Shown: positions 1,521-35,619, counted from the stretch's first letter. The stretch is DNA of 35,665 bases from Acutalibacteraceae bacterium (GCA_045122755.1 JBGVHY010000091.1:1-35665); one strand, 5' to 3'. A program made the numbers and translations. The notes: generated by a model from the letters alone, not told the origin.

Positions 1521-1979
1521 ATGATGCCTGATAGAAACGTATATATAATGAATTTAAAAGATACTCGAAAAGAGTCTTTAAATAAAAATTCTTCTAAAAA
1601 GTTTGAAATATGCTATAAAGAAAGGTTTGTGGCAATCGGGTGGGGTACAGAATTTTCAAGAACTGAAGACAATTATAGGCGAGCATTAAAATGCATACAA
1701 GATATGAAAAAAGGAGATATTGTTTGGGTTAGAAATCCCAAAACCAAAGAGAGATATCTTTGCGAGATTTTAGGCAATTTTGAAGATTACGGCGAAAAGT
1801 TTATCGAATATGATATTTCACAGGGAATAAAGTGCAAGTTTTATAAGATAGAGTGTAAAATTGAAGACAAGATAAACCCGAAAAGATTGGTGTCCATTTC
1901 AACAGTGCGTGCAGTTAAACAGGAAGATGTGATAGAATTCACAAAAGAATTATTTGCTAATTCAAAAGAAACTAATTAG
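1521..1979 (+). CDS. Hypothetical small cytoplasmic protein (152 aa) with no family I can name
   Basis: The track ORF at 1470-1979 was trimmed to the ATG at 1521, because 1473-1503 is a terminator hairpin and AAGGA lies 6 nt upstream of 1521. There is no signal peptide. The motifs FVAIGWG and KKGDIVWV recall N-terminal reader-type modules of restriction-associated ATPases, from memory only. The stop is 20 nt before the LRR gene. Confidence 0.6.
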   Translation: MMPDRNVYIMNLKDTRKESLNKNSSKKFEICYKERFVAIGWGTEFSRTEDNYRRALKCIQDMKKGDIVWVRNPKTKERYLCEILGNFEDYGEKFIEYDISQGIKCKFYKIECKIEDKINPKRLVSISTVRAVKQEDVIEFTKELFANSKETN

Positions 1980-1999
1980 TTTATAAGGAGATATAAAAA

Positions 2000-4900
2000 A
2001 TGAAAAAAGTATTGTCTATTTTATTATCATTATTTATGGTAGTATCTATCGTTCCTATTGCTAACATCACCGTTAGCGCTGCCACAAGCGGATATTATAC
2101 ATATACCATATCAAACAGTGAAGCAACAATTACTGATTGCAGCACCTCAATCAGCGGCAATATCACAATCCCATCGTTCCTTGGTGGTTATTCTGTAACA
2201 AGTATTGGTAATAGGGCATTTTATTATTGCACATCATTAACAAGCATAATAATCCCAGATAGTGTAACAAGTATTGGTAATAGTGCATTTTATGATTGCA
2301 CATCATTGATGAGCATAACAATCACTGATAGTGTAACAAGCATTGGTGATTATGCATTTTCTAGTTGCGACTCATTAACAAGCATAACAATCCCGGATAG
2401 TGTAACAAGTATTGGTAGTTATGCATTTTATAATTGTACATCATTAACAAGCATAAATGTATCAGATAACAACACTTCGTATTGTGATATAGACGGAGTT
2501 TTATTTAATAAAGATAAAACTGAACTTGTAACATATCCCGCGGACAAAACTCAAACAATATATACAATCCCTGACAGTGTAACAAGTATTGGTGATGGTG
2601 CATTTGATTATTGCAAATCATTAACAAGCATATATGTATCAGATAACAACACTTCGTATTGTGATATAGACGGAGTTTTATTTAATAAAGATAAAACTGA
2701 ACTTGTAACATATCCCGCGGGCAAAACTCAAACAATATATACAATCCCAGATAGTGTAACAAGTATTGGTAATGATGCATTTTCTAGTTGCGACTCATTA
2801 ACAAGCGTGAGCATAGGAGATAGTGTAACAAGTATTGGTGATTGGGCATTTTATTATTGCAAATCATTAACAAGCATAACAATCCCGGATAGTGTAACAA
2901 GTATTGCTGATGGGGCATTTTATTGTTGCACATCATTAACAAGCATAACAATCCCGGATAGTGTAACAAGTATTGGTAATGGGGCATTTGAAGATTGCGA
3001 ATCATTAACAAGCGTGAGCATAGGAGATAGTGTAACAAGTATTGGTGATTGGGCATTTTATTTTTGCAAATCATTAACAAGCATAACAATCCCTGACAGT
3101 GTAACAAGTATTGGTGAAGAGGCATTTTATTATTGCGAATCATTAACAAGCGTGAGCATAGGAGATAGTGTAACAAGTATTGGTTATAGTGCATTTTCTT
3201 ATTGCAAATCATTAACAAGCGTGAGCATAGGAGATAGTGTAACAAGTATTGGTGATTATGCATTTTCTTATTGCTATTCATTAACAAGCATAACAATCCC
3301 GGATAGTGTAACAAGTATTGGTTATAGTGCATTTGAAGATTGCGCCAATGCAATTTTTTATTGTGCTTGTAATAATAGTTACGCAGAGAATTATTTAAAA
3401 GACGAAGGAAAAAACTATATAATTTCTCATAACTATTCAAATTTAAAATACAACACAACGGGACACTGGCATAAATGTTCTGATTGTGATTCTACAACAA
3501 CAGTAGAATCACACAGTGGCGGTACTGCAACTTGCACAAGCAAAGCAGTTTGTTCAACTTGTAAGCAAAGTTATGGTAGCGCGTTAGGTCATAACTACAA
3601 AGAAAAAGTACTAATTCCGTCCTCGTGCGAAGTAGTCGGAAAAAAACAATTCACTTGTTCAAAATGCAACGATACCTATGAAGAAGAAATTTCTGCTTTA
3701 GGTCACGACCGAGTTGTAGTTGAGCAAGCACCATCTACAATTTTGAGCGATGGTTATGAAGTTATTGAATGCCAAAATGACGGTTGCAATTATAGTGATA
3801 TTATTTATTATGACAGATTGACACTTGAATACAACAAAACTTATTACGAAAACGGAACAGACTATTACAAAATCGTTTTGGATAAATCAGGATTTTTAGT
3901 TTTCGATTTTGTTGGCGATAGCGAAAAATGGGCGATTAATATATATGATGAAGACGGTAAGAAAGTAGATACTTTAAAACCTGTGTATAAGTCATTTTTC
4001 AAAAAATCATATCTTCAAGCAGGTGTCAGTTCTTCTGTACCAAATGAAAATCAGATAACCGCTTTGTATGCAGGTGCTTATTACGTTGAAATCGAAAGAC
4101 AAGATGAAAATTATAATTTCACAGGCGATTATCAATTCTCAATAGGTTATTTTCCGTCAAGCGAAACTTTAGTTGAAACAAAGTATAATTTTTATTACGA
4201 TGCTCCAACTGCAAGAGAAATAACCCTTAATTCTACTTACAACGGATTTTTGGGCAGTAAATTTGCGGCTTATAATTATAGCGGTACTGAAATAGTTACA
4301 ACCGATTCAACCGACGCGTATATCATTGAAATTCCAAAGGGAAGCGGTTGGGCGCAATTAAGTATAACGTTATCTGCTAAATCGTTCCCTCCACTTAATT
4401 CAAGTTGCACTATTAGTATTTACAATGCCGACTTTGATTTGTGCGAAGATTTTACACCTATGACAGTTTCGTCGGACTCAACAAAGAATCAAATAACGTA
4501 TTTATACGAGGGTATTTATTATATTGCCGTTGACTCTAATCAGTCTATCGAATATAGTTTTAAAACGGAATACAAATCTACAGGAACTTTTGTATGCGTA
4601 ACTCATAAAGGAAAGTTGATTGAAACAAAAAATCCAACTTGCACAATCGACGGTTATCAACTTTATGATTGTAATATTTGTCAGACTAAATATAAGGTTG
4701 TAATTCCGGCTCAAGGGCATATTAATGTAATTGATTACGCAAAGCCTGCAACCTATTTGACTTCCGGTTTGACTCAAGGCGCACATTGTTCAGTTTGCGG
4801 TCAAGTTTTAGTTGCTCAAAAAGTAATTCCAAAACTTGTTAAAGTGACTGTTAAAACACCTACCGTTAAATACACAGGTGGTAAGAAAAAGATTACAATT

Positions 4901-5122
4901 AAACACACAAAAGTCACAGGTACTACAAGTTTTGAAGTTCAATACAAAAAAGGCAACGGAAAGTGGCAAAAAGCAACTTACGTTCTAAAGAAAAACGGTT
5001 CAAAGGTAATTAAAAAACTCAAAAAAGGTAATTACAAAATCCGCGTAAGAGCGTTTGTAAAACAAAACGGCAAAACCGTATATTCTAATTGGACAAAACT
5101 TAAAAAAGTTAAAGTAAAATAA
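2000..5122 (+). CDS. Large secreted BspA-type leucine-rich-repeat surface protein with Cys/His-rich modules, two PPC-like beta-sandwich domains and a C-terminal Fn3-like domain
   Basis: 1040-aa ORF with SD AAGGAG at 1985-1990. Signal peptide [27 protein letters not shown]. About 17 repeats of roughly 23 aa, consensus [23 protein letters not shown]. Cys-rich GH..C..C modules are present. PPC-like segments include [25 protein letters not shown] and [26 protein letters not shown]. The C-terminus is Lys-rich and Fn3-like. Confidence 0.85.
2192..3344 (+). repeat. In-frame tandem 69-bp (23-aa) LRR-coding repeats, including a near-identical 177-bp tandem duplication (about 2459-2635 and 2636-2812)
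   Basis: Recurring strings gatagtgtaacaagtattggt and tcattaacaagcataacaatccc. The stretch gtatcagataacaacacttcgtattgtgatatagacggagttttatttaataaagataaaactgaacttgtaacatatcccgcgg occurs at 2459 and again at 2636, an offset of 177 bp. Confidence 0.9.
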
Positions 5123-5128
5123 TTTTTA

Positions 5129-5161
5129 GGGGCGAGAGGACACCTCCCGCCCTTTGTTTTT
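5129..5161 (+). terminator. Intrinsic terminator of the LRR protein gene
   Basis: GC-rich stem gggcgagagg / cctcccgccc with one mismatch and loop aca, followed by tttgttttt. Confidence 0.8.
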
Positions 5162-5252
5162 CTAAAATCGCTACGAATACGGCGAGGCTTTCGGGTATAT
5201 CTTATTAAATATAACGGTATACAAATTAGATATTTTACATATCTAAAAAAGT

Positions 5253-5270
5253 TTGTTAAAATATTAACAG
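5253..5270 (+). promoter_or_regulatory. Candidate Rex operator (TTGTTAA-AATA-TTAACAG) upstream of adhE
   Basis: 18-bp near-palindrome that matches the Clostridial Rex consensus TTGTTAAnnnnTTAACAA at 17 of 18 positions. It lies 68 nt upstream of the adhE ATG. adhE is a classical Rex target. Confidence 0.6.
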
Positions 5271-5337
5271 ACTTGAAAATGAGTCAGAATATCAACCAGT
5301 TAATGCTTAAAAATTATTTATAAAAGGAGAAACAAAA

Positions 5338-7959
5338 ATGCAAACACAGAAGACTTATGAAATTGTTGACAGTGTTGAAACACTTGAAGCAGCCCTCCAG
5401 AGAGTAAGAGAGGCACAGAAGAAATTTGCTACTTACACTCAGGAACAGGTTGACGAGATTTTCAAAGCTGCAGCAATCGCGGCAAACGGCCAGAGAATTC
5501 CTCTTGCAAAAATGGCTGTTGAAGAAACAGGCATGGGTATCGTAGAGGATAAGGTTATTAAAAACCACTATGCTGCTGAGTACATCTACAACGCTTATAA
5601 AAACACAAAAACTTGTGGTGTTATCGAAGAAGATAAGGCTTACGGCACAACAAAAATCGCTGAGCCTATCGGTGTAGTTGGTGCAGTTATTCCTACAACC
5701 AACCCTACTTCAACTGCAATCTTCAAAACACTTATTTCTCTTAAAACAAGAAACGGTATCATTATCAGCCCTCACCCAAGAGCAAAAAATTCAACTATCG
5801 CTGCTGCTAAAGTTGTTCTTGAAGCTGCTGTTAAAGCAGGTGCTCCTGAAGGCATCATTGACTGGATTGACGTTCCGTCACTTGATATGACAAACCTTCT
5901 TATGAAAGAGTCTGATATTATCCTCGCTACAGGCGGTCCTGGTATGGTTAAGGCTGCTTACTCAAGCGGTACTCCGGCGCTCGGCGTTGGTGCAGGTAAC
6001 ACTCCTGCAATCATTGATGAGTCTGCTGATACAGTTCTTGCAGTTAACTCAATTATTCATTCAAAAACATTCGATAATGGTATGATTTGTGCTTCTGAGC
6101 AGTCAGTTATCGTTCTTGATAAAGTTTACAAGAAAGTTAAAGATGAGTTCAAAGCAAGAGGTTGTTACTTCCTTAATGCTGATGAAACAGAAAAGGTAAG
6201 AAAAACAATTATCATCAACGGTGCACTTAATGCTAAAATCGTTGGTCAGAAGGCTCACACAATTGCAGCTCTCGCCGGCGTTGAAGTCCCTGAAGCTACA
6301 AAAATTCTTATCGGTGAAGTTGAATCAGTTGATATTGCTGAAGAATTCGCTCATGAGAAGCTTTCTCCTGTACTTGCTATGTACAAAGCAAAATCATTCG
6401 GTGAGGCACTTGACAAGGCTGAACAGCTCGTTGCTGACGGCGGTTACGGTCATACATCTTCACTCTATGTTAACGAAGTAACAGAAAGAGAAAAAATCGC
6501 TGAGTTCGGCGCAAGAATGAAAACTTGCCGAATTTTAGTTAACACACCTTCTTCACAGGGCGGTATCGGTGACCTTTACAACTTCAAACTTGCTCCGTCA
6601 CTTACACTCGGCTGCGGTTCTTGGGGTGGTAACTCGGTATCTGAAAACGTTGGTGTTAAACACCTTATCAATATTAAAACTGTTGCTGAAAGAAGGGAAA
6701 ATATGCTTTGGTTCAGAGCACCTGAAAAGGTTTATATGAAAAAAGGTTGCTTGCCTGTAGCTCTTGATGAGCTTAAGAATGTTATGGGTAAACAGAGAGC
6801 GTTCATCGTTACTGACAGCTTCCTTTACAATAACGGCTATACAAAAGCTATCACAGATAAGCTTGACGAAATGGGCATCGTACATACTACATTCTTTGAT
6901 GTTGCTCCGGACCCGACACTCGGTTGTGCTACAGAAGGTGCTGCTCAGATGAGAGCATTCCAGCCTGACTGCATTATCGCTCTCGGCGGCGGTTCGGCTA
7001 TGGACGCTGCTAAGATTATGTGGGTAATGTATGAGCATCCTGAAGCAGACTTTATGGATATGGCTATGCGTTTCGTTGATATTCGTAAACGTGTTTACAC
7101 ATTCCCTAAAATGGGCGAAAAAGCTTACTTTATCGCTATTCCTACATCAGCAGGTACAGGTTCAGAGGTTACTCCTTTCGCAGTTATCACTGATGAGAAA
7201 ACAGGTGTTAAATATCCTCTCGCTGACTACGAGCTTATGCCAAATATGGCTATTATTGATGCTGACTTCCATATGTCAGCTCCAAAAGGACTTACTGCGG
7301 CATCAGGTATCGACGCTGTAACTCATGCTCTTGAAGCATACGCTGCAATGCTCGCTACTGACTACACAGACGGTCTTGCTTTACAGTCACTCAAAATTAT
7401 CTTTGAATATCTCCCAAGAGCTTACGACAACGGTCAGAATGACCCAGAGGCAAGAGAGAAAATGGCTAACGCTGCTACTATGGCAGGTATGGCATTTGCA
7501 AACGCATTCTTAGGCGTTTGTCACTCAATGGCTCATAAACTGGGTGCTTTCTATCACTTACCACACGGTGTTGCTAACGCACTTATGATTGACCACGTTC
7601 TTCGTTTCAACGCTGTTGAAGTTCCAAGCAAAATGGGTACATTCTCGCAGTATGACCATCCTCATACATTAGCTAGATATGCTGAAGTAGCTGATTACCT
7701 CGGTATCAAAGGCAAGACAAATGAGGACAAACTCGAAAATCTTATCAAAGCTATTGATGAGCTTAAAGAAAAAGTTGGTATCAAAGCTACAATCAAGGAT
7801 TACGGCGTAGATGAAGCTGAATTCTTAGAGAAGCTTGATGAAATGACAGAGCAGGCATTTGACGACCAGTGTACAGGTGCTAACCCAAGATATCCGCTTA
7901 TGAGCGAAATCAAGCAGATGTACTTAAATGCTTACTACGGCAACAACGAAACAGTTTGA
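5338..7959 (+). CDS. adhE: Bifunctional acetaldehyde-CoA/alcohol dehydrogenase
   Basis: 873-aa ORF with SD AAGGAG upstream. The N-terminal half is an aldehyde dehydrogenase (ICASEQS catalytic Cys region). The C-terminal half is an iron-type ADH (GGGSAMDAAK, HSMAHKLG..HLPHG). Length and architecture are typical of AdhE. Confidence 0.97.
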   Translation: MQTQKTYEIVDSVETLEAALQRVREAQKKFATYTQEQVDEIFKAAAIAANGQRIPLAKMAVEETGMGIVEDKVIKNHYAAEYIYNAYKNTKTCGVIEEDKAYGTTKIAEPIGVVGAVIPTTNPTSTAIFKTLISLKTRNGIIISPHPRAKNSTIAAAKVVLEAAVKAGAPEGIIDWIDVPSLDMTNLLMKESDIILATGGPGMVKAAYSSGTPALGVGAGNTPAIIDESADTVLAVNSIIHSKTFDNGMICASEQSVIVLDKVYKKVKDEFKARGCYFLNADETEKVRKTIIINGALNAKIVGQKAHTIAALAGVEVPEATKILIGEVESVDIAEEFAHEKLSPVLAMYKAKSFGEALDKAEQLVADGGYGHTSSLYVNEVTEREKIAEFGARMKTCRILVNTPSSQGGIGDLYNFKLAPSLTLGCGSWGGNSVSENVGVKHLINIKTVAERRENMLWFRAPEKVYMKKGCLPVALDELKNVMGKQRAFIVTDSFLYNNGYTKAITDKLDEMGIVHTTFFDVAPDPTLGCATEGAAQMRAFQPDCIIALGGGSAMDAAKIMWVMYEHPEADFMDMAMRFVDIRKRVYTFPKMGEKAYFIAIPTSAGTGSEVTPFAVITDEKTGVKYPLADYELMPNMAIIDADFHMSAPKGLTAASGIDAVTHALEAYAAMLATDYTDGLALQSLKIIFEYLPRAYDNGQNDPEAREKMANAATMAGMAFANAFLGVCHSMAHKLGAFYHLPHGVANALMIDHVLRFNAVEVPSKMGTFSQYDHPHTLARYAEVADYLGIKGKTNEDKLENLIKAIDELKEKVGIKATIKDYGVDEAEFLEKLDEMTEQAFDDQCTGANPRYPLMSEIKQMYLNAYYGNNETV

Positions 7960-7973
7960 TTGGAGGTATTATA

Positions 7974-8723
7974 ATGAATTTAGACAGAGTAATTGCAGTT
8001 CGCACAGATAAAACAGTTTATCGTGACGGCGACAAGGCTATTAAGGTTTTCAATGAGGATTTTTCAAAGGCTGATATCCTTAACGAGGCTCTTAATCAGG
8101 CAAGAATTGAGGAAACTGAGCTTAATATTCCAAAAATCTCAGAGGTTACAACAATCGACGGCAAATGGGCAATCGTTTATGACTTTATTAAAGGCAAAAC
8201 CTTGGCTCAGCTTATGGAAGAAAATCCTGAGAAGAAAGACGAGTATCTTGAATTGTTCGTTGATTTACAGATGACAGTTCACGCTCAGAAATGTCCGCTT
8301 CTTAACAAGCTTAAAGATAAAATGACAAGAAAAATCAGCGAGGCTGATTTGGATGCAACAACCCGTTATGAGCTTCATACCCGTCTTGAGGGTATGCCAA
8401 AGCATAACAAGGTTTGCCACGGTGACTTCAACCCTTCAAATATCATCATTGATGATAACGGCACAGCATTTATCCTTGACTGGTCACACGCAACTCAGGG
8501 TAACGCATCTGCTGACGTAGCAAGAACATATCTTCTCTTCTATCTCGCAGGCGATATCGATGGTGCTAACAAGTATCTCAACCTCTTCTGCAAGAAGAGC
8601 GATACTGCTAAGCAGTACATTCAGAAATGGCTTCCTATCGTTGCCGCTTCACAGTCAGTAAAAGGTAATCCGAAGGAAAGAGAATTCTTACTTTCATGGG
8701 TTAACGTAGTAGACTACGAATAA
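7974..8723 (+). CDS. APH/choline-kinase-fold phosphotransferase (putative protein kinase of the hydS cluster)
   Basis: Trimmed to the ATG at 7974, with GGAGG at 7961-7965. Kinase catalytic-loop motif HGDFNPSNIII followed by ILDWSHA. It starts 15 nt after the adhE stop. Confidence 0.75.
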   Translation: MNLDRVIAVRTDKTVYRDGDKAIKVFNEDFSKADILNEALNQARIEETELNIPKISEVTTIDGKWAIVYDFIKGKTLAQLMEENPEKKDEYLELFVDLQMTVHAQKCPLLNKLKDKMTRKISEADLDATTRYELHTRLEGMPKHNKVCHGDFNPSNIIIDDNGTAFILDWSHATQGNASADVARTYLLFYLAGDIDGANKYLNLFCKKSDTAKQYIQKWLPIVAASQSVKGNPKEREFLLSWVNVVDYE

Positions 8724-8732
8724 GAACTTGAA

Positions 8733-8766
8733 TTGAGGATAGCGTGAAATTTCACGCTATCCTCAA
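8733..8766. promoter_or_regulatory. Perfect 34-bp palindrome between the kinase gene and the first ferredoxin gene
   Basis: ttgaggatagcgtgaaa|tttcacgctatcctcaa has 17-nt arms that are perfectly complementary. No T-run follows on either strand, so it is not a canonical intrinsic terminator. Confidence 0.6.
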
Positions 8767-8812
8767 CAGGGATAATAAAGTGTCGGTAATTTCGACAGAA
8801 TGGAGATCAAAA

Positions 8813-9052
8813 ATGAAAATTACAGTATGTATAGGTAGTTCATGTCATTTAAAAGGTTCAAGACAGATTGTTGAAGAGTTACAGTATCTTATTAATCAGA
8901 ATAATTTAAAAGAAAAAGTAGAGCTTGCAGGTACTTTTTGTATGGGTAACTGCAAAAACGGCGTATGTGTAACTTTGGATGATAAAGAGTATTCTTTATC
9001 ACCTGAAACTACAAAAGATTTCTTTGAAAAAGAAGTATTGGCAAAGATTTAG
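8813..9052 (+). CDS. Thioredoxin-like [2Fe-2S] ferredoxin-domain protein (79 aa), copy 1
   Basis: Trimmed to the ATG at 8813, with GGAG at 8802-8805. The longer GTG start at 8744 lies inside the palindrome. Cys pattern CIGSSC...CMGNC (Cx4C...Cx3C). Confidence 0.75.
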   Translation: MKITVCIGSSCHLKGSRQIVEELQYLINQNNLKEKVELAGTFCMGNCKNGVCVTLDDKEYSLSPETTKDFFEKEVLAKI

Positions 9053-9063
9053 TTTAATATTTT

Positions 9064-9095
9064 AAAAAATCCGTGTGATTTACACGGATTTTTTA
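9064..9095 (+). terminator. Intrinsic terminator between the two ferredoxin paralogs
   Basis: 8-bp stem atccgtgt/acacggat with loop gattt. It is flanked by A5 upstream and T5 downstream. Confidence 0.75.
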
Positions 9096-9154
9096 AGGCA
9101 AATATCAGAGAAAGGAGCCTTTTTTCGGGATTTTACCTGAAAAATTTATGGAAT

Positions 9155-9406
9155 ATGATTGTTCAGGTTTGTATTGGCAGTTCCTGCCACTTGAAAGGAT
9201 CACACGATATCGTAGATTTAATGAAAGCGGCGGTTGAGGAACACAATCTTTCTGATGAAGTTGTTCTTGCCGGCTCTTTCTGCTGCGGAATGTGCAGCAA
9301 CAGCGGTGTTACCGTTGTAATTGATGATGAAAAAACAAGCGGAGTTACAAAAGAAAATTTCAAAGAATTTTTTGAAAAGAATATTCTACAAAAAGTTTCA
9401 CGCTAA
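9155..9406 (+). CDS. Thioredoxin-like [2Fe-2S] ferredoxin-domain protein (83 aa), copy 2
   Basis: Paralog of 8813-9052. It shares VCIGSSCHLKGS, LAG.FC.G.C and FKEFFEK/KDFFEK. I see no clear SD within 15 nt of the ATG. It ends 14 nt before hydS. Confidence 0.7.
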   Translation: MIVQVCIGSSCHLKGSHDIVDLMKAAVEEHNLSDEVVLAGSFCCGMCSNSGVTVVIDDEKTSGVTKENFKEFFEKNILQKVSR

Positions 9407-9420
9407 GAGGGTAGAAGATT

Positions 9421-11094
9421 ATGGCTGATGTTTTAAAACTAAAAAAGTCTAATTGTAAAAACTGTTATAAATGTATAAGACATTGTCCTGTAAAATCTAT
9501 AAGATTTTCAGGAAACCAGGCGCATATAGTTAATAATGAATGTATTCTGTGCGGTCAGTGTTTTGTTGTCTGCCCGCAGAATGCTAAAGAGATTACCGAT
9601 GAAACAGAAAAGGTTGAGGTTCTTATCCAAAGCGGTGACCCTGTAATTGTTTCGCTCGCACCTTCGTTCGTTGCAAATTATGAGGGTGTCGGTATCGATG
9701 GTATGACAAAGGCGCTTAAAGAGCTCGGATTCTATGATGTTGAGGAAACTGCTATAGGCGCTACTATTGTTAAAAAAGAATATGAAAAAATGATTCATGA
9801 AAAAAAGCAGGATATTATTATCACTTCCTGTTGTCATTCAGTTAACCTGCTTATTCAGAAATATTATCCATTGCAATTGCCGTATCTGGCTGATATAATG
9901 TCACCAATGCAGGCTCATTGCGAGGATATCAGGAAGCGTTATCCTAATGCGAAAACCGTATTTATCGGTCCTTGTGTTGCTAAAAAGGATGAGGCTGAAT
10001 ATTACAAAAGTGCTGATGCAGTACTTACCTTTGAACAGCTTACTGAATGGCTTAAACGAAAGAATATCACACTCGAGAAGAGTTTCATAAAAAAAGAAAA
10101 ATCAAAAGCGAGATTTTTCCCGACTACAGGCGGCGTGCTTAAATCAATGTCGCTTGACAGCGAGGATTATACATATATGGCGATTGACGGTGTTGAAAAC
10201 TGTATCGCCGCTTTGGCTGAAATTGCTACAGGAAAGCTTAAGAATTGCTTTATTGAAATGTCGGCTTGCCATGGCTCATGTATCGGCGGACCGGTTATGG
10301 AAAAATATCATAACAGCTTGGTTCAGGATTACATAGCTGTTTCAAAGAGCGCAGGCGAAGAAGATTTCGATGTTGAAATGCCGAAGTCTTCCGAACTTAA
10401 AAAGAGCTTCGAGTCTATTCCTAAAAAGCTTACTATGCCTTCGGAAATAGAAGTTAAAGAAATTCTTAAAAAAATGGGTAAACAAAAGGCAGAAGATGAG
10501 CTTAATTGCGGCTCCTGCGGTTACAACACCTGCAGAGAAAAGGCAATTGCTATTTATCAGGGCAAGGCTGACCATTCTATGTGTCTGCCGTTCTTAAAAG
10601 ATAAAGCCGAGAGTTTTTCTGATACAATTATCAACAACACTCCTAACGGAATCGTTGTGCTTAATGACCAACTCGAAGTTCAACAGATTAACCGCTCAGC
10701 GCTTAAGATTATGAATATCGCCAGAGCGTCTGATGTGCTTGGCGAACAGGTTATCAGAATTCTTGACCCGAAAGTGTTTATTGATGTTCAGACCACGGGC
10801 AGAAGTATTCATGATGAGCTTGTTTATCTTGCTGAGTATGACAAGTATGTTGAGCAGACAGTTATTTATGATAAAGAGTATAAGAGCGTTATGTGCTTAA
10901 TGCGTGATGTTACTGACGAGCAGAACGAACGCAAAAAGAAAGAGTCTATAAGTATGCAAACGGTTGAGATTGCCGACAAGGTGGTTGACAAACAGATGCG
11001 TATTGTTCAGGAAATTGCGTCACTCCTTGGTGAAACTGCAGCAGAAACAAAAATTGCGCTTACAAAACTAAAGGAGTCGATTTCTGATGAATAA
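9421..11094 (+). CDS. hydS: Sensory-type [FeFe]-hydrogenase-like protein with C-terminal PAS domain (HydS/HfsB-like, group C)
   Basis: 557 aa. N-terminal 2x[4Fe-4S] motifs CKNCYKCIRHCP and CILCGQCFVVCP. H-cluster motifs TSCCHS, GPCVAKKDE and EMSACHGSCIGGP. An extra Cx2Cx4Cx16C motif (CGSCGYNTC...C). PAS-like region from about aa 398 to 497, then a C-terminal helical tail. Confidence 0.85.
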   Translation: MADVLKLKKSNCKNCYKCIRHCPVKSIRFSGNQAHIVNNECILCGQCFVVCPQNAKEITDETEKVEVLIQSGDPVIVSLAPSFVANYEGVGIDGMTKALKELGFYDVEETAIGATIVKKEYEKMIHEKKQDIIITSCCHSVNLLIQKYYPLQLPYLADIMSPMQAHCEDIRKRYPNAKTVFIGPCVAKKDEAEYYKSADAVLTFEQLTEWLKRKNITLEKSFIKKEKSKARFFPTTGGVLKSMSLDSEDYTYMAIDGVENCIAALAEIATGKLKNCFIEMSACHGSCIGGPVMEKYHNSLVQDYIAVSKSAGEEDFDVEMPKSSELKKSFESIPKKLTMPSEIEVKEILKKMGKQKAEDELNCGSCGYNTCREKAIAIYQGKADHSMCLPFLKDKAESFSDTIINNTPNGIVVLNDQLEVQQINRSALKIMNIARASDVLGEQVIRILDPKVFIDVQTTGRSIHDELVYLAEYDKYVEQTVIYDKEYKSVMCLMRDVTDEQNERKKKESISMQTVEIADKVVDKQMRIVQEIASLLGETAAETKIALTKLKESISDE

Positions 11095-12259
11095 TCTATG
11101 TGCAGATATCGGCTACCACAGCCTTATAAAACATGGCGAGCAGTTGTGCGGCGACCATATTGACGTTATCGAGCAGAATGAAAATTCTACCGTTATCGTT
11201 TTAGCTGACGGCTTGGGAAGCGGTGTTAAGGCGAGCATTTTGTCAACTCTTACTTCAAAAATCATTTCAACAATGGTTGCTGAAGGATTGTCGGTTGAGG
11301 ATTGCGTTAAAACAATTGCCGCTACTCTGCCTGTTTGCTCAGTTAGAGGCGTTGCTTACTCAACCTTTACTATTATTCATCTTATCAATAATGATGAGGC
11401 TGAGATAATTCAGTATGATAACCCGCAGGTAATACTTCTTCGTGACGGAAAAAATTACGATTATCCGAAAACCGAAATGAATATCGACGGCAAGTCGATA
11501 TTCACCAGCCGCATAAAGCTTCAGGAAAATGATATTTTCATTGCAATGAGCGACGGATGTATTCACGCCGGTGTTGGAATGGCGCTTAATTTCGGTTGGG
11601 AAAGAGATAACATCATTGAGTTTATGGAAACTTTCTATGATGTAGGCTTTACCGCTAAAACTCTTTCGACTATATTGCTTGATGAGTGTTACAAGCTTTA
11701 CGGCAACAAGCCGGGTGATGACACTACCGTTTGTACAGTTAAAATCAGAGAGCGCAAACCGCTTAATATGCTTTTTGGTCCGCCTTCTGACAGAAACGAC
11801 GCTAACAAAATGATGTCGCTTTTCTTCTCAAAAGAAGGTAAGCATATAATCAGCGGTGGTACAACTTCTTCAATTGCGGCTTCATTTCTTAAAAAGCCGC
11901 TTGAACCAAGTCTAGAGTTTGTTGACCCTGAGATTCCGCCGATTGCGCATATTGATGGTGTTGACCTTGTAACCGAAGGTGTAATCACTGTAAATAAGGT
12001 TGTCGAATATGCAAAAGATTACCTTGATGATAATGACTCTTATAAGCAGTGGAGCTACAAGCAGGACGGCGCTTCAATGATAAGCCGATTGCTTTTTGAA
12101 GAGGCCACCGACATCAACTTCTTTGTAGGCAGGGCGGTAAACCCAGCGCATCAAAATCCTGATCTGCCGATAAATTTCAATATCAAGATGAATCTTGTTA
12201 CCGAATTGTCCGAGTGCCTTAAAAAGATGGGCAAAAGAATCAAAGTAAGTTATTTCTAA
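11087..12259 (+). CDS. SpoIIE/PP2C-family serine phosphatase with an extra C-terminal domain of about 160 aa
   Basis: 390 aa. It overlaps the hydS stop by 8 nt (ATGAATAA). PP2C motifs VLADGLGSGVKASI, MSDGCIHAG and GDDTTVCTVKI. I cannot assign a family to the C-terminal half. Confidence 0.8.
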   Translation: MNNLCADIGYHSLIKHGEQLCGDHIDVIEQNENSTVIVLADGLGSGVKASILSTLTSKIISTMVAEGLSVEDCVKTIAATLPVCSVRGVAYSTFTIIHLINNDEAEIIQYDNPQVILLRDGKNYDYPKTEMNIDGKSIFTSRIKLQENDIFIAMSDGCIHAGVGMALNFGWERDNIIEFMETFYDVGFTAKTLSTILLDECYKLYGNKPGDDTTVCTVKIRERKPLNMLFGPPSDRNDANKMMSLFFSKEGKHIISGGTTSSIAASFLKKPLEPSLEFVDPEIPPIAHIDGVDLVTEGVITVNKVVEYAKDYLDDNDSYKQWSYKQDGASMISRLLFEEATDINFFVGRAVNPAHQNPDLPINFNIKMNLVTELSECLKKMGKRIKVSYF

Positions 12260-12277
12260 ATAAAAAAGGGGATACCT

Positions 12278-13699
12278 ATGAGAAAATTTGATACTAAAGT
12301 ACAGTATTTAAAATACAAGGTACTTCGTGAAGTAGCACGTCAGGCTTGGAATGATACCTTGCTTGATAAGCTTCTTGAAATACCGAAAATCATTGTTCCG
12401 GGTAATACGCCTACAATGAGATGCTGCGTTTATAAGGAACGCGCTATTCTTGGCGAACGTGTGAAAATTGCTATGGGCGGCGATAAGAATAACCCGAATG
12501 TTATCGAGGTTATCAGCATTGCCTGTGATGAATGTCCTGTTGGCGGTTACGAAGTAACAGGCGCTTGCCGTGGTTGTCTTGCGCACCGTTGTGAAGATGT
12601 TTGCCCGAGAGGTGCTATTTCATTCGACCATAATCACGTTGCGCATATTGATAAATCAAAATGCGTTGAGTGTGGTAGATGTGCTCAGGTTTGTCCGTAC
12701 AGCGCGATTGGTAATAACAAACGTCCTTGCGAACGTGCTTGTAAAATCGGCGCTATTTCAATGGACGAAACAAAGGCTGCAAGCATTGATAACAGCAAAT
12801 GTATCTCTTGCGGTGCTTGCGTTTATCAGTGTCCGTTCGGCGCGATTACCGATAAGTCATTTATTCTTAATGTAATTGATGATATCAAAAAAAGCGAGAA
12901 CAACAAGAAATACAAGGTTTATGCAGTTGTTGCGCCTTCTATTTCTTCACAGTTCCAGTATGCAAATTTAGGTCAGGTTATCACAGGAATAAAAGAGCTT
13001 GGCTTCCACACAGTTATTGAGGCAGCACTCGGCGCTGATATGGTAGCAATGAAAGAGGCTAAGGAGTTAGCTGAAAAAGGCTTTCTTACAAGCTCATGTT
13101 GCCCTGCATTCGTTAAATATATCGAAACTCAGTTCCCACAGATGGTAGAGCATATTTCGCACAACCTCTCACCAATGGCTGAGCTTGCAAAATATATTAA
13201 GGAAACCGACCCTACAGCAAAGGTTATATTTATCGGACCTTGTACTGCTAAAAAGATGGAGTTCCAGAAAGAGAATATTCATGAATATGTTGACAGCGTA
13301 ATTACTTTCGAGGAATTGCAGGCGCTCTTTGACAGCAAGGATTTGGATATTACAACTCTTGAGGAAGGCGTACTTGATAACGCTTCTTACTACGGCAGAA
13401 TTTTTGCCCGCAGCGGCGGTCTTTCTGATTCTGTTGTTCAGGCACTTAAAGAGCAGGAAATCGACTTTGAAGTCAAGGCTGAGGTCTGCGATGGAATTGA
13501 GCAGTGCAAGATGGCACTTCTTAAAGCATCAAAGGGTGTGTTGCCGGCTAACTTTATCGAGGGTATGTCTTGTATCGGCGGTTGTATCGGCGGTGCAGGT
13601 TGCTTAACTCACGGCGCTAAGGATAAGGCTGAGGTTGACAAATACGGCAAAGAGGCTATGGAAAAGACTATCAGCGATGCTATAAGCATTATTCAGTAA
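12278..13699 (+). CDS. hydA: Monomeric [FeFe]-hydrogenase (group B-like, HydA2/HfsD-like)
   Basis: 473 aa with SD GGGGA upstream. Cys-rich N-terminus with several [4Fe-4S] motifs (CVECGRCAQVCP, CISCGACVYQCP). H-cluster motifs TSSCCPAF, GPCTAKKME and EGMSCIGGCIGGAGC. Confidence 0.88.
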   Translation: MRKFDTKVQYLKYKVLREVARQAWNDTLLDKLLEIPKIIVPGNTPTMRCCVYKERAILGERVKIAMGGDKNNPNVIEVISIACDECPVGGYEVTGACRGCLAHRCEDVCPRGAISFDHNHVAHIDKSKCVECGRCAQVCPYSAIGNNKRPCERACKIGAISMDETKAASIDNSKCISCGACVYQCPFGAITDKSFILNVIDDIKKSENNKKYKVYAVVAPSISSQFQYANLGQVITGIKELGFHTVIEAALGADMVAMKEAKELAEKGFLTSSCCPAFVKYIETQFPQMVEHISHNLSPMAELAKYIKETDPTAKVIFIGPCTAKKMEFQKENIHEYVDSVITFEELQALFDSKDLDITTLEEGVLDNASYYGRIFARSGGLSDSVVQALKEQEIDFEVKAEVCDGIEQCKMALLKASKGVLPANFIEGMSCIGGCIGGAGCLTHGAKDKAEVDKYGKEAMEKTISDAISIIQ

Positions 13700-13766
13700 A
13701 AGTTTAATTAATTGTATAAATAGATTAAATTTGCTTTTTTCATTTTATGTTTCTCTATATTATAAA

Positions 13767-13802
13767 AGAAGTACCGCAGTTTGTCTGCGGTACTTCTTTT
13801 TT
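13767..13802 (+). terminator. Intrinsic terminator of hydA (repeat copy 1)
   Basis: Perfect 13-bp stem agaagtaccgcag/ctgcggtacttct with loop tttgt, followed by T-run tttttt. Confidence 0.9.
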
Positions 13803-13816
13803 GTATAATTTTAAAA

Positions 13817-13851
13817 AAATAGGTTGAATTTATCCTATTTTTGTGTATAAT
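13817..13851 (+). promoter_or_regulatory. Candidate phd-doc promoter (TTGAAT-16-TATAAT) with overlapping inverted repeat
   Basis: TTGAAT at 13824-13829 and TATAAT at 13846-13851. The inverted repeat aaatagg (13817-13823) / cctattt (13834-13840) flanks the -35 element, where an antitoxin autoregulation operator would be expected. Confidence 0.5.
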
Positions 13852-13871
13852 AAAATCAGGAGGCGATTATA

Positions 13872-14114
13872 ATGACAATTAATACAAAAAATCTGGTTTC
13901 TATTACAGAAGCAAATCAGAACTTTTCAAAAGTAGCGAGAATGGTGGACGAAAATGGAGCGGCTGTTATTTTGAAAAACAATGTGCCTCGTTATCTTATA
14001 ATTGAATTTGAACAAGCCGAAAAAGAGCAGACTGCTTTAAACGAAGATGTTATGACAATTTCAAAAAGGCTCATTGAAAAAAACAAAGAGGCATATGAGG
14101 TATTATCTAAATGA
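13872..14114 (+). CDS. phd: Phd/YefM-family type II antitoxin
   Basis: 80 aa. The N-terminus LVSITEANQNFSKVARMVDENGAAVILKNNVPRYLIIEF is typical of Phd/YefM. A 4-nt ATGA overlap joins it to the downstream Doc gene. SD AGGAGG is upstream. Confidence 0.85.
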   Translation: MTINTKNLVSITEANQNFSKVARMVDENGAAVILKNNVPRYLIIEFEQAEKEQTALNEDVMTISKRLIEKNKEAYEVLSK

Positions 14115-14488
14115 AAATACTGACAAAAGAGCAGATTTTGTTCCTTCATAGCGAGCTCGTTAAACACACAGGCGGACAGGATGGGTTGCGCGATGAAGCT
14201 CTGCTTGACTCAGCTATAAGTGCACCGTTTCAATCGTTTGACGGAATTGATACGTTTCCGTCAATACAACAAAAAGCAGCAAGATTGGGTTACGGTCTGA
14301 TAAAGAATCACGCTTTTATTGATGGTAACAAGAGAATAGGTGCTCATAGTATGCTTGTGTTTTTGAGTTTGAACGGCATTGAGCTTGAATATACGCAGGT
14401 AGAGTTATATACAATTATACTTGATATTGCATCAGGAAAAAAGAATTTTGAAGATTTGTTAAAATGGATAATTGAACATCAGATATAA
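14111..14488 (+). CDS. doc: Doc (death-on-curing) Fic-fold toxin
   Basis: 125 aa. Fic/Doc active-site motif HAFIDGNKRIG. It is translationally coupled to phd. Confidence 0.9.
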   Translation: MKILTKEQILFLHSELVKHTGGQDGLRDEALLDSAISAPFQSFDGIDTFPSIQQKAARLGYGLIKNHAFIDGNKRIGAHSMLVFLSLNGIELEYTQVELYTIILDIASGKKNFEDLLKWIIEHQI

Positions 14489-14489
14489 G

Positions 14490-14524
14490 AGAAGTACCGC
14501 AGTTTGTCTGCGGTACTTCTTTTT
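14490..14524 (+). terminator. Intrinsic terminator after doc (repeat copy 2, identical to 13767-13801)
   Basis: agaagtaccgcagtttgtctgcggtacttcttttt is identical over 35 nt to the hydA terminator 723 bp upstream. It starts 1 nt after the doc stop codon. Confidence 0.9.
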
Positions 14525-14652
14525 GTAATACTTTTTATGATGTTTGATATGATTTTAAAATAGTTTATTTGAAAAATGACATATTTCAAGCTTATTTTAG
14601 ATAAAAATCATTAGTTTTTATACAACTTGCATAAAATATTTATTGAAATTTC

Positions 14653-14661
14653 TGTTATAAT
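14653..14661 (+). promoter_or_regulatory. Candidate extended -10 promoter (TGTTATAAT), distal S10-operon promoter
   Basis: TGnTATAAT at 14653-14661. There is no good -35 at 17-nt spacing. Confidence 0.35.
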
Positions 14662-14700
14662 GCGCAAAACGTAGAAATTTACGCGCATACAAACTTTTTC

Positions 14701-14729
14701 TTGCAATACTTGACTATTTATGTTATTAT
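14701..14729 (+). promoter_or_regulatory. Candidate sigma-A promoter of the S10 operon (TTGCAA-17-TATTAT with TGn)
   Basis: TTGCAA at 14701-14706, a 17-nt spacer, TATTAT at 14724-14729, preceded by TGT. The same tgttattatatt string recurs in the promoter at 35654-35665. Confidence 0.5.
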
Positions 14730-14735
14730 ATTTAG

Positions 14736-15051
14736 GCGCGAGATATGCGCATACATGCGTTGAAGCAGGAGGTGGCCGCTCTTTGAAGCGGGAAATTTCT
14801 GCCGAGTATGTCCGATTTTAAACCGGGCGAAATTATACTGTTTAAAAGTATTTTCCTTATGTCTTAATACAAGGCAATCGGGCTTTGTTAATGGGGCGTA
14901 AAGGAACTTTAGCCGGACCCGGGAACTGCACGAGGTGTGCTGATTTCCGGTTTTATGTTGGAAAAACGTGAAACACCCGGCTGAGGGTTAACGACAAAAA
15001 CAGTATGTCACTGCCCGCCGCCAGTAAATTTTTATAGGAGGCGTTAAAGCT
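14736..15051 (+). promoter_or_regulatory. Long (about 315 nt) structured 5' leader of rpsJ with a terminator-like hairpin
   Basis: The segment has no ORF and is visibly more G+C-rich than the AT-rich spacer upstream. The hairpin's outer stem pairs 14919-14925 with 14944-14950 (7 bp, one G-U). The inner stem pairs 14928-14931 with 14937-14940. It is followed by tttta at 14951-14955. SD AGGAGG is at 15036-15041. Confidence 0.45.
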
Positions 15052-15360
15052 ATGGCAAAGGAAAAAATCAGAATCAGAATCAAAAGTTACGACCACGTTT
15101 TAGTTGACAAGTCAGCTGAAAAGATCGTCGAAACTGCGAAGCGCACAGGTGCTAGAGTATCAGGCCCTATTCCGCTTCCGACAGAGAGGGAAGTTGTTAC
15201 AATCCTCCGCGCTGTTCATAAATATAAAGACAGCCGTGAGCAGTTCGAAACAAGAACTCATAAGAGATTGATCGACATTCTTCGTCCGTCAAACAAGACA
15301 GTAGAGGCTTTACAGAGCCTTGAATTACCTGCCGGCGTTGATATCGAAATCAACCTTTAA
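15052..15360 (+). CDS. rpsJ: 30S ribosomal protein S10
   Basis: 102 aa, [15 protein letters not shown]... First gene of the canonical S10 operon order. Confidence 0.97.
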
Positions 15361-34326: not shown

Positions 34327-35619
34327 ATGAAGAAAATTATTTGTTTATGTTTATCATTTTTGATGGTATTTTCTGTGTTTACAACATTTTCGGTTGTAAA
34401 TGCTGCTGAAGTTATCTACGGAGATGTCAATTCCGACGGCGTTGTGGATATGAGGGATTTGCTTTTTTTCAGAAAATATCTTGCTAAAATGACAGGATAT
34501 AACAATAAGACTATCAACTCCGTTAATGCGGATATCAACTGCAACGGCAAGATTAACGATTTGTTAGATGTAAAATATCTTATAATGCATCTTTCAAAAG
34601 AAAAACTGATTACAAATGCTAAAACCTATACAATGGATGCTTTTGAAAATTGTATTACCCTCTGCGGAAGAGCAGTTTCAGAAGACGGTGCAATTAAGCT
34701 TTCGCAGTCTGCAAGTGGTTTCAAATTTAAAGCCAACTGTGAAGGTGATATTCAGATACTTCTTACTACTGCAAGCAACGGAAAGCTTGTTGTAACAGTT
34801 GATGAGGATTATGATAATGCTGTAACTGTTGATGTCAGCGCAAATACAGGTAAATATTATGTTGAGCTTGGGCTTGAAAAAGGCGAGCATACAATTATGA
34901 TTCAGAAGGCTACCGAGTGGTCAGTAAACAGTTTATTTACTATCAACGGTCTTGCTTTCTCGGGTGAATTCGGCGCTGAACCGCCTGAGGCAAAAACACG
35001 TAGAATTGAATTTTACGGTGACTCTATCACAAGCGGCTACGGTAACCTTACCTACAACGGTCAGTCAAGAGCAGGCAGTTGGGAATATCAGGACGGTTGT
35101 AAAACTTATGCTGCATTCACAGCAAACGCTTTGAACGCTGATTACGCGGTAGCATCTGCAAGCGGTCACGGTGTTATTACTGGTCTTGGTAGCGCTACTC
35201 AGACTTATGATAAATTCTTTGATTATTCATTGATTGATACAAAAACTGCTTGGTCTAGAGCAGATTATGATGCTGATTTAATCGTAATAAATTATGGCTC
35301 GAATGATAACACAAAAAAAGGCTATGACCTTGATACCGCGGCTTTTGAGGCTGAGTGTTCAAAGATTATCGAGGGTATGAGAGAAGAAAATCCTGATGTG
35401 CAAATTCTTTGGGTAATCGGTATGAACACTGTTGAAGATTCTGCGCCGGTTATAACAAGCCTTAAGAATATTGATGAAAAATATGATTATGTGAATTTTT
35501 ATAAAGCAACTGCAAAACACAGCGGCGGTGACTCACACCCGACAGTAGCGGAGCATAAATTCCATGCTGAAGGTCTTGTTGCTAAGATAAAGGCGCTTTA
35601 TCCTGATATGTTTGAATAA
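34327..35619 (+). CDS. Secreted N-terminal-dockerin SGNH/GDSL hydrolase (CE2-like carbohydrate esterase architecture)
   Basis: 430 aa. Signal peptide. Dockerin type I Ca-binding repeats DVNSDGVVDMRD and DINCNGKINDLLD. A beta-sandwich-like middle region. SGNH blocks FYGDSITSGYG, NYGSNDN and GGDSHP. Confidence 0.8.
   Translation: MKKIICLCLSFLMVFSVFTTFSVVNAAEVIYGDVNSDGVVDMRDLLFFRKYLAKMTGYNNKTINSVNADINCNGKINDLLDVKYLIMHLSKEKLITNAKTYTMDAFENCITLCGRAVSEDGAIKLSQSASGFKFKANCEGDIQILLTTASNGKLVVTVDEDYDNAVTVDVSANTGKYYVELGLEKGEHTIMIQKATEWSVNSLFTINGLAFSGEFGAEPPEAKTRRIEFYGDSITSGYGNLTYNGQSRAGSWEYQDGCKTYAAFTANALNADYAVASASGHGVITGLGSATQTYDKFFDYSLIDTKTAWSRADYDADLIVINYGSNDNTKKGYDLDTAAFEAECSKIIEGMREENPDVQILWVIGMNTVEDSAPVITSLKNIDEKYDYVNFYKATAKHSGGDSHPTVAEHKFHAEGLVAKIKALYPDMFE

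Follow-up and report, generated by a model that had tools for sequence, protein, structure and literature searches.

Whether gut and rumen fermenters form acetate and H2 or instead ethanol depends on the partial pressure of H2, and this bears on methane emissions and on the yields of biofuels; the choice has been ascribed to a pathway with a sensory [FeFe]-hydrogenase. In Ruminococcus albus 7, the genes concerned lie on pRUMAL01 and are annotated there in the order rex-adhE-phosphotransferase-fdx-fdx-hydS-SpoIIE-hydA2; this cluster is reportedly the transcription unit described by Zheng and co-workers in 2014. The putative eight-gene cluster of R. albus was 111-fold lower when Wolinella removed H2 in co-culture (Greening et al. 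2019, PMC6776011). The hfsABCD genes of Thermoanaerobacterium have been genetically linked to adhE expression and ethanol yield (PMC5707799, PMC11837493): deletion of hfsA or hfsB raised the adhE transcript two- to threefold, and deletion of hfsC or hfsD caused no rise (PMC5707799). These genetics fit a repressing role of HfsA and HfsB upstream of adhE transcription. Here we describe a related cluster of seven same-strand genes (positions 5338-13699) in a 35.7-kb stretch of DNA from an Acutalibacteraceae bacterium, the whole of which we call the window. An earlier sequence-only reading of this stretch had likened the cluster to both the R. albus and the hfsABCD systems, correctly in view of the pRUMAL01 annotation and of PMC5707799. 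It had also called the signalling route unresolved, and the literature from 2023 to 2026 still describes the physiological role and mechanism as unknown.

Judged by gene content and sequence identity, the window cluster is an ortholog of the R. albus 7 pRUMAL01 cluster, and the system is one already known. A tblastn search of a plasmid collection located the kinase (71% identical) and the PP2C phosphatase (73% identical) on pRUMAL01, where the seven shared genes are annotated in the same order, and the hydS and PP2C genes overlap in both clusters. This comparison bears out the view that an H2-sensing module homologous to the R. albus and hfs systems is linked to adhE. That adhE is "physically fused" to the module is right as to linkage but not as to fusion. 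We consider it probable, if some way from certain, that the locus is the Acutalibacteraceae ortholog of the H2/redox-responsive ethanol-or-hydrogen switch of R. albus 7, built of two modules and gated by Rex and a LysR-type regulator. The weight of this overall picture comes mostly from orthology and modular architecture, and little from the PP2C substrate and the kinase target.

Positions are counted on the window, and genes were called from the listing of open reading frames together with Pfam and NCBIfam scans, whose models supported all seven genes that had been proposed (Table 1). Their packing, described before as tight, is uneven: it holds for most junctions but not for the gaps of 89 nt after the kinase gene and 102 nt after fdx1. 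From the DNA, the kinase most likely starts at ATG 7974, which is preceded by a GGAGG ribosome-binding site, and not at TTG 7956, and therefore does not overlap adhE; for fdx1, DNA and translation point to ATG 8813 as the most likely start, giving 79 amino acids. The 8-nt overlap between hydS and the PP2C gene proved genuine, -8 being also the median across 54 related loci, and the two genes are therefore translationally coupled. No STAS substrate, GHKL anti-sigma kinase or sigma-factor open reading frame was detected within 5338-13699 by the listing and Pfam. The earlier statement that STAS, sigma-factor, response-regulator and DNA-binding genes are missing is accurate for this interval but not as a trait of the system, as relatives carry lysR and/or rex.

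Two modules in related loci

All related loci were sampled through the kinase, and the comparative results rest on gene neighbourhood and motif statistics. A genome scan yielded at least 598 matching stretches in species-representative genomes, of which the 80 closest loci were annotated; a metagenome scan with a different motif provided a further 80, more diverse loci, and single loci were looked up in addition. A third homolog search, made with a diverse kinase alignment, returned close relatives only (76-85% identity). De-replication at 90% kinase identity left 71 lineages whose flanks were informative, with kinases 42-100% identical to that of the window. More remote APH homologs, with less than 33% identity, were found in unrelated contexts on plasmids of C. 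estertheticum and M. extorquens; we count them with the APH family at large and leave them out of this subfamily. The outermost members of the kinase family include one that stands by itself and one located behind an ArsR-type gene.

The adhE-kinase pair and the HydS module occurred together in 44 of the 71 lineages, 23 with rex and 21, like the window, without it. A further 19 lineages had the adhE-kinase pair alone, five had rex-kinase with the HydS module and no adhE, and three had the kinase and the HydS module with neither adhE nor rex. The kinase was never found with neither adhE nor the HydS module (0/71); it is tied to the cluster, and not the unrelated enzyme that the sequence-only reading had named as its possible undoing. 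Directly 5′ of the kinase lay adhE in 61 of 63 close loci. The pair occurs without HydS and PP2C in Collinsella aerofaciens, an actinobacterium, in Lachnospiraceae and in Clostridium sp. CAG:245, which is very common in the human gut. Monoglobus pectinilyticus (L182, 6068-10684) has a bare fdx-hydS-PP2C-hydA set with no kinase, adhE, rex or lysR. Co-occurrence of the kinase, fdx, hydS and PP2C genes across genomes was thus seen in the 44 lineages, but kinase and PP2C are separable and do not form an obligate pair, given the 19 lineages with adhE-kinase alone, Collinsella, and the kinase-less module of Monoglobus.

From gene order across these lineages, the cluster is read as two separable modules: (A) adhE with a dedicated kinase and (B) fdx-fdx-hydS-PP2C-hydA, of the hfsABCD type. 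The PP2C is coupled to HydS, and the kinase mostly to adhE. By analogy with the four-gene Monoglobus locus, HfsA would be the equivalent of a small ferredoxin. The stricter rule that the kinase tracks adhE and not hydS was tried and had to be softened in view of rex-kinase-fdx-hydS-PP2C loci that have no adhE.

Other arrangements were found as well. One Lachnospiraceae lineage (L166, and L167 at 1970-12330) has the permuted order fdx-hydS-PP2C-hydA-(Fe-ADH fragment)-adhE-kinase-Fe-ADH, where Fe-ADH stands for an iron-type alcohol dehydrogenase, with adhE and the kinase gene overlapping by 4 nt. In this lineage the cluster is followed by a tungsten-type aldehyde:ferredoxin oxidoreductase and molybdopterin-related genes. 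Three loci with distant kinase homologs lie directly 5′ of electron-bifurcating HydCBA hydrogenases: (i) L169 (6364-14762), NAD kinase-rex-kinase(HGE)-fdx-fdx-hydS-PP2C-hydCBA, with an 11-nt overlap of rex and the kinase gene; (ii) L171 (2661-12113), rex-lysR-kinase(HGS)-fdx-hydS-PP2C-hydCBA; and (iii) L174 (6315-12624), lysR-FeADH-x-rex-kinase(HAE)-fdx-x-hydCBA, which has no hydS or PP2C. Judged by these motifs, which replace the catalytic HGD, the HGE, HGS and HAE homologs may be pseudokinases.

The adhE promoter and its probable DNA-binding regulators

In the roughly 180 related loci, the genes are usually arranged as lysR-(rex)-(adhE)-kinase-fdx1-(fdx2)-hydS-PP2C-hydrogenase. The lysR gene is the commonest upstream neighbour and precedes rex, adhE or the kinase gene in most related clusters (for example L081, 7556-8488); a clear ortholog, 42-68% identical to R. 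albus RUMAL_RS17345, was detected by tblastn 5′ of the cluster in 65 fetched loci. The eight R. albus genes for which co-regulation has been reported do not include the conserved LysR-family regulator. With R. albus Rex as the tblastn query, rex was located directly 5′ of adhE in 28 of the 80 closest loci. The same kind of search found neither rex nor a lysR ortholog in the 35.7-kb window. If only loci are considered whose flanks are complete and whose HydS module is full as far as hydA, both regulator genes are missing in the window and in L013 alone. Comparison of architectures places the 5′ boundary of the window cluster at the terminator of the upstream leucine-rich-repeat gene (5128-5154), where relatives have lysR and/or rex, and the departure from the usual layout falls between this terminator and about position 5190.

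In the Rex regulon of Clostridia, adhE and hydrogenase genes are repressed at low NADH/NAD+. A predicted Rex operator and a predicted LysR-type dyad lie at the adhE promoter of the window (Table 1). The clostridial Rex consensus TTGTTAANNNNTTAACAA was applied as used in PMC9600882, and a match as good as that of the window is expected by chance 0.01 times per window. Allowing up to 2 mismatches, the 16-nt core of the Rex box was present 5′ of adhE in 41 of 74 rex-less loci, compared with 2.4% of random windows. Between the kinase and hydA, no Rex box was found inside the window cluster. When promoters were aligned on the Rex box, lysR-containing loci had in common the dyad GGTTATATC-N6-GATATAACC about 55-60 nt 5′ of it, and the dyad of the window is positioned in the same way. 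Dyad matches with up to 2 mismatches occurred in 0.67% of shuffled upstream regions; with up to 3 mismatches allowed, the share was 57% for lysR-containing loci, 14% for lysR-lacking ones and 5.8% for shuffles.

Since the window keeps a Rex box and a LysR-type dyad, its absent DNA-binding output is probably encoded elsewhere in the genome. Because relatives carry lysR or rex and the window retains these cis elements, we regard the absence of a DNA-binding gene as a local accident of genome rearrangement and not as a feature of the system.

Enzymes of the cluster and the proposed mechanism

Aligned to CpI, the window's HydS reads TSCCH, GPC (M353 to G) and EMSAC (M497 to S). With the H-cluster cysteine motifs present and non-canonical residues at M353 and M497, it is assigned from its motifs to the sensory (group C) enzymes; the proton-relay cysteine at the CpI C299 position (TSCCH) is retained. 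The C-terminal 4-Cys domain is well supported (PF04060, 39.6 bits against a cutoff of 23), and the PAS region is borderline (PF00989, 21.6 bits against 22.6).

The PP2C catalytic domain comprises residues 1-224. Its metal-binding residues D23, D41, G42, D156, D211 and D212 are invariant in 30 homologs, and the active site is intact. The structural model has a predicted local distance difference test score (pLDDT) of 79 and matches the fold of the SpoIIE phosphatase domain (5mqh, E = 1e-13). Joined to the catalytic part is a conserved alpha/beta domain (residues 225-390; 11759-12259) with the motifs GGTTSS and NPAHQNP and about 86% mean column identity across species. This domain had no Pfam match even at E = 10 and no convincing relative in the PDB. 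A SIS-domain identity was considered for it from a weak GmhA match (PDB profile, E = 0.033) and dropped, as hhalign against GlmS gave a probability of 0.6% and Pfam gave nothing.

The kinase shows the features of APH and eukaryotic-like kinases, i.e. an APH domain, a Lys-Glu pair, an HxDxxxxN loop and a metal-binding Asp: K24, E38, H149-G150-D151, N156 and D169 are intact, and the catalytic loop reads HGDFNPSN. Its model (pLDDT 77.5) is closest to APH(3′) enzymes (TM-score 0.67) and also resembles YtaA, and its best sequence match in the PDB is the choline kinase LicA. The Hanks-type score stays below the Pfam cutoff (PF00069, 22 bits against 31.7); given this score and an APH/choline-kinase-type fold, protein phosphorylation by the enzyme is putative, and the label "Ser/Thr protein kinase" is an assumption and not a finding. 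A literature search on AdhE phosphorylation turned up nothing relevant. The kinase family comprises 335 clusters at 50% identity (E below 1e-30), and in about one fifth of 110 representatives the catalytic Asp is replaced (HGN, HGE, HGS, HGH, HGG). As a tentative proposal that we hold with more doubt than confidence, these APH-fold proteins of about 250 amino acids (in the sampled range of 42-100% identity to that of the window, in Clostridia and Coriobacteriia, always beside adhE, rex or the HydS cassette) could be a dedicated family of regulators of fermentative redox balance. As kinases or, where the Asp is missing, pseudokinases, they would have AdhE and/or the LysR-type regulator or Rex as their targets and would link the HydS-PP2C sensor to gene expression or enzyme activity in such clusters.

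In the mechanism that we propose for the switch, two regulators with genes elsewhere in the genome would gate transcription from the adhE promoter: Rex, through its response to the NADH/NAD+ ratio, and the LysR-type regulator. At high H2, the bifurcating NADH-linked hydrogenase could not dispose of NADH and the NADH/NAD+ ratio would rise; Rex would then leave the adhE promoter, with the LysR-type regulator as a second input. On derepression, AdhE and the ferredoxin-only HydA would be made, and the hairpins after the kinase gene and fdx1 would cut read-through, so that the sensor genes would be expressed below adhE. HydS, poised by H2 and/or the small ferredoxins, would alter the activity of the bound PP2C via its C-terminal cluster and PAS region, and the substrate of the PP2C would be encoded outside the cluster. 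The kinase would act chiefly with AdhE, whose gene almost invariably adjoins it on the 5′ side, or else on the regulators, and would not be a strict antagonist of the PP2C.

Several points weigh against this picture. Rex binding and the H2 response of the window cluster are predictions, co-transcription and induction at high H2 being known for R. albus 7 only, and no match to the clostridial Rex consensus was detected 5′ of R. albus rex. That rex and lysR are present elsewhere in the genome is an assumption, the search having covered the 35.7-kb window. The LysR-type dyad is rich in A and T and differs in spacing from locus to locus, and even with 3 mismatches allowed it is matched in just the 57% of lysR-containing loci given above. 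Rex control alone could explain the H2 response without a role for HydS. As for the kinase, its modelled fold cannot tell a protein from a small-molecule substrate. Moreover, in 8 of the 71 lineages the kinase and the HydS module are retained and adhE is absent, and the genes of some distant homologs show translational coupling to rex instead; because of such loci, the AdhE-centred reading of the kinase is not exclusive.

A rival model starts from an option named in the sequence-only reading, direct action on AdhE or HydA: kinase and PP2C would be an antagonistic pair that, under HydS, sets the phosphorylation of AdhE or HydA, so that the response is post-translational and no transcription factor is needed. 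All four genes are together in the 44 lineages mentioned above, the association returns in the permuted gene order of Lachnospiraceae, the catalytic residues of both enzymes are intact in the window, and in hfs mutants changes in the adhE transcript only partly explain those in alcohol and aldehyde dehydrogenase activity (PMC5707799). Nevertheless, we think this model unlikely, as each enzyme is widely found without the other (the 19 adhE-kinase lineages, Collinsella, Monoglobus, and hfsABCD as described), STAS-domain partners are the best-known targets of SpoIIE-type PP2Cs, and the kinase is APH/choline-kinase-like with its PF00069 score below cutoff and the catalytic Asp missing in about 20% of family representatives. 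The same structural and sequence matches, to APH(3′) enzymes and LicA, would suit a small-molecule kinase (or, in some lineages, a nucleotide-binding pseudokinase), whose product or whose protein itself modulates the LysR-type regulator or Rex while HydS-PP2C acts on an unlinked substrate. LysR-type regulators classically sense small co-inducers, lysR is the most frequent upstream neighbour, and the distant HGE, HGS and HAE homologs sit in rex-kinase cassettes, one of them with the 11-nt overlap. No candidate metabolite is known, however, and both lysR and rex are missing beside the adhE-kinase pairs of Lachnospiraceae, Clostridium sp. CAG:245 and Collinsella. Some APH-fold enzymes also phosphorylate proteins, and we judge the small-molecule explanation to be quite unlikely.

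The role of HydS itself can be questioned too. In this explanation, fdx, HydS, PP2C and HydA would form one multi-subunit hydrogenase of the Hfs type, in which HydS serves mainly in catalysis or electron transfer and not as a sensor, and control lies wholly with Rex and the LysR-type regulator. Hfs is regarded as a hydrogenase by the Lynd group, with the suggestion that HfsABC could work in the absence of HfsD (PMC13277313); the window's HydS has kept the proton-relay cysteine, the position at which TmHydS has A131, and the H2 response can be accounted for by Rex, as noted. However, sensory enzymes of low activity typically show what is seen here, with M353 changed to G, M497 to S, an additional C-terminal cluster and a PAS-like region; a hydrogenase-coupled phosphatase has no evident catalytic role, and deletion of hfsB raises both hydrogenase activity and adhE expression (PMC5707799). 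This explanation seems to us improbable.

For the two-module switch that we favour, the window brings no new type of system, being unusual in its lack of both regulator genes, and it makes the question of the sensor output no more testable than R. albus 7 already does. The comparison with relatives nonetheless narrows the search: (i) the usual cassette includes a conserved LysR-type regulator and Rex; (ii) physical coupling ties the sensor to the PP2C and leaves out the kinase; (iii) the kinase belongs with AdhE and is widespread alone in common human gut bacteria; and (iv) the same cassette also precedes electron-bifurcating HydABC hydrogenases. A further by-product of the comparison is the set of Asp-less kinase homologs coupled to rex.

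Other features of the window and comparison with known systems

Table 1. Genes, promoter elements and hairpins of the adhE-hydA cluster, with positions on the window
Feature	Position	Strand	Basis
Terminator hairpin of upstream BspA-like leucine-rich-repeat gene	5128..5154	+	fold -17.2 kcal/mol, then TTTGTTTTT
Predicted LysR-type dyad GTATATCTTATTAAATATAA	5195..5214	+	2/14 mismatches to relatives' dyad
Best sigma-70-like promoter: TTTACA, 17-nt spacer, TG-extended TAAAAT	5234..5262	+	10/12 consensus positions
Predicted Rex operator TTGTTAAAATATTAACAG, overlaps -10 element	5253..5270	+	17/18 to TTGTTAANNNNTTAACAA
adhE, bifunctional acetaldehyde-CoA/alcohol dehydrogenase	5338..7959	+	NF010378, 1410 bits vs cutoff 951
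APH-fold kinase, 249 aa	7974..8723	+	PF01636, 48 bits vs cutoff 23.2
34-nt perfect palindrome TTGAGGATAGCGTGAAATTTCACGCTATCCTCAA, hairpin without U-run	8733..8766	+	-35.9 kcal/mol, z = -8.2
fdx1, thioredoxin-like [2Fe-2S] ferredoxin, CX4C...CX3C motif	8813..9052	+	PF01257 + translation
Terminator-like hairpin with U-run between fdx1 and fdx2 (102-nt gap)	9060..9098	+	-18.7 kcal/mol, z = -6.2
fdx2, second thioredoxin-like [2Fe-2S] ferredoxin	9155..9406	+	PF01257
HydS, sensory-type (group C) [FeFe]-hydrogenase	9421..11094	+	Pfam: Fer4, Fe_hyd_lg_C, PF04060 4-Cys domain
SpoIIE-type PP2C phosphatase	11087..12259	+	PF07228, 52.6 bits
HydA, monomeric group B [FeFe]-hydrogenase, HydA2/HfsD type	12278..13699	+	TIGR04105 (group B1), 577.9 bits vs cutoff 450
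Intrinsic terminator after hydA	13767..13802	+	GC-rich hairpin then TTTTTT

The gap after the kinase gene, at the junction of the adhE-kinase and HydS modules, is occupied by the palindrome at 8733-8766, which occurs once in the window. Its role could lie in the processing or stability of the RNA, as a hairpin, or in the binding of a protein. The gap between the kinase gene and fdx1 is longer than 60 nt at 22 of 66 loci, with a strong hairpin in most of those that were folded; these hairpins are non-homologous. The gap between fdx1 and fdx2 has a median of 5 nt (47 loci) and exceeds 60 nt in the window alone, and the terminator-like hairpin within it is a window-specific feature. Together, the hairpins at 8733-8766 and 9060-9098 may split the transcription unit.

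Homologs of the kinase and of the PP2C assign the organism to the Acutalibacteraceae (Oscillospirales). The upstream neighbour of the cluster encodes a BspA-type leucine-rich-repeat protein of 1040 amino acids (2000-5122). On the downstream side, a Phd/Doc toxin-antitoxin pair is followed by the main S10 ribosomal-protein operon. A 52-nt direct repeat (13761-13812 and 14484-14535, 90% identical), both copies of which contain the same terminator hairpin, brackets this Phd/YefM-Doc pair (13872-14488); between hydA and the S10 operon, either insertion of the cassette or duplication of the terminator appears to have taken place. An S10-Clostridia ribosomal-protein leader (RF03136, 39 bits against a gathering score of 35.1) lies at 14752-14830, just 5′ of rpsJ. 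It was the only element above threshold in an Rfam scan of 4900-15100, which gave no riboswitch or leader for adhE or hydS. Near the end of the window, a dockerin-bearing CE2/GDSL esterase (34327-35619) suggests a cellulosome-type, fibre-degrading gut bacterium.

Compared with the Rex regulon of Clostridia, the window has a predicted operator that matches the consensus at 17 of 18 positions and overlaps the -10 element of adhE; it differs in that rex is absent from the window. With the SpoIIE/RsbU partner-switching phosphatases, the window's PP2C shares the fold and the metal ligands, its best structural matches being the SpoIIE phosphatase domain and Rv1364c RsbU. Unlike in partner switching, the locus is without a STAS substrate, an anti-sigma kinase and a sigma factor, and the PP2C has an extra, conserved C-terminal domain of 165 amino acids. 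The TmHydS of Thermotoga maritima has Gly and Ser (G177 and S267; PMC10055695) at the positions of CpI M353 and M497, as does the window's HydS. A C-terminal 4-Cys cluster domain is present in both; it precedes a PAS region in TmHydS and a PAS-like one in the window, where the match is borderline and narrowly misses the Pfam cutoff. The residue equivalent to CpI C299 is Ala131 in TmHydS (PMC10055695), whereas the HydS of the window has Cys.

Module B resembles the hfsABCD genes of T. saccharolyticum and T. thermosaccharolyticum in its PAS hydrogenase (HfsB), serine phosphatase (HfsC) and ferredoxin-linked hydrogenase (HfsD). These four genes, compared here by their published description, have no adjacent adhE or APH-like kinase. 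The cluster of R. albus 7 differs from that of the window in other respects. There, lysR and then rex precede adhE, whereas the window is without both; a clostridial-type Rex box is present in the window but was not found 5′ of R. albus rex; and the terminator-like hairpin between the ferredoxin genes belongs to the window. Finally, the R. albus 7 cluster is carried on a megaplasmid, whereas that of the window adjoins the S10 ribosomal-protein operon.

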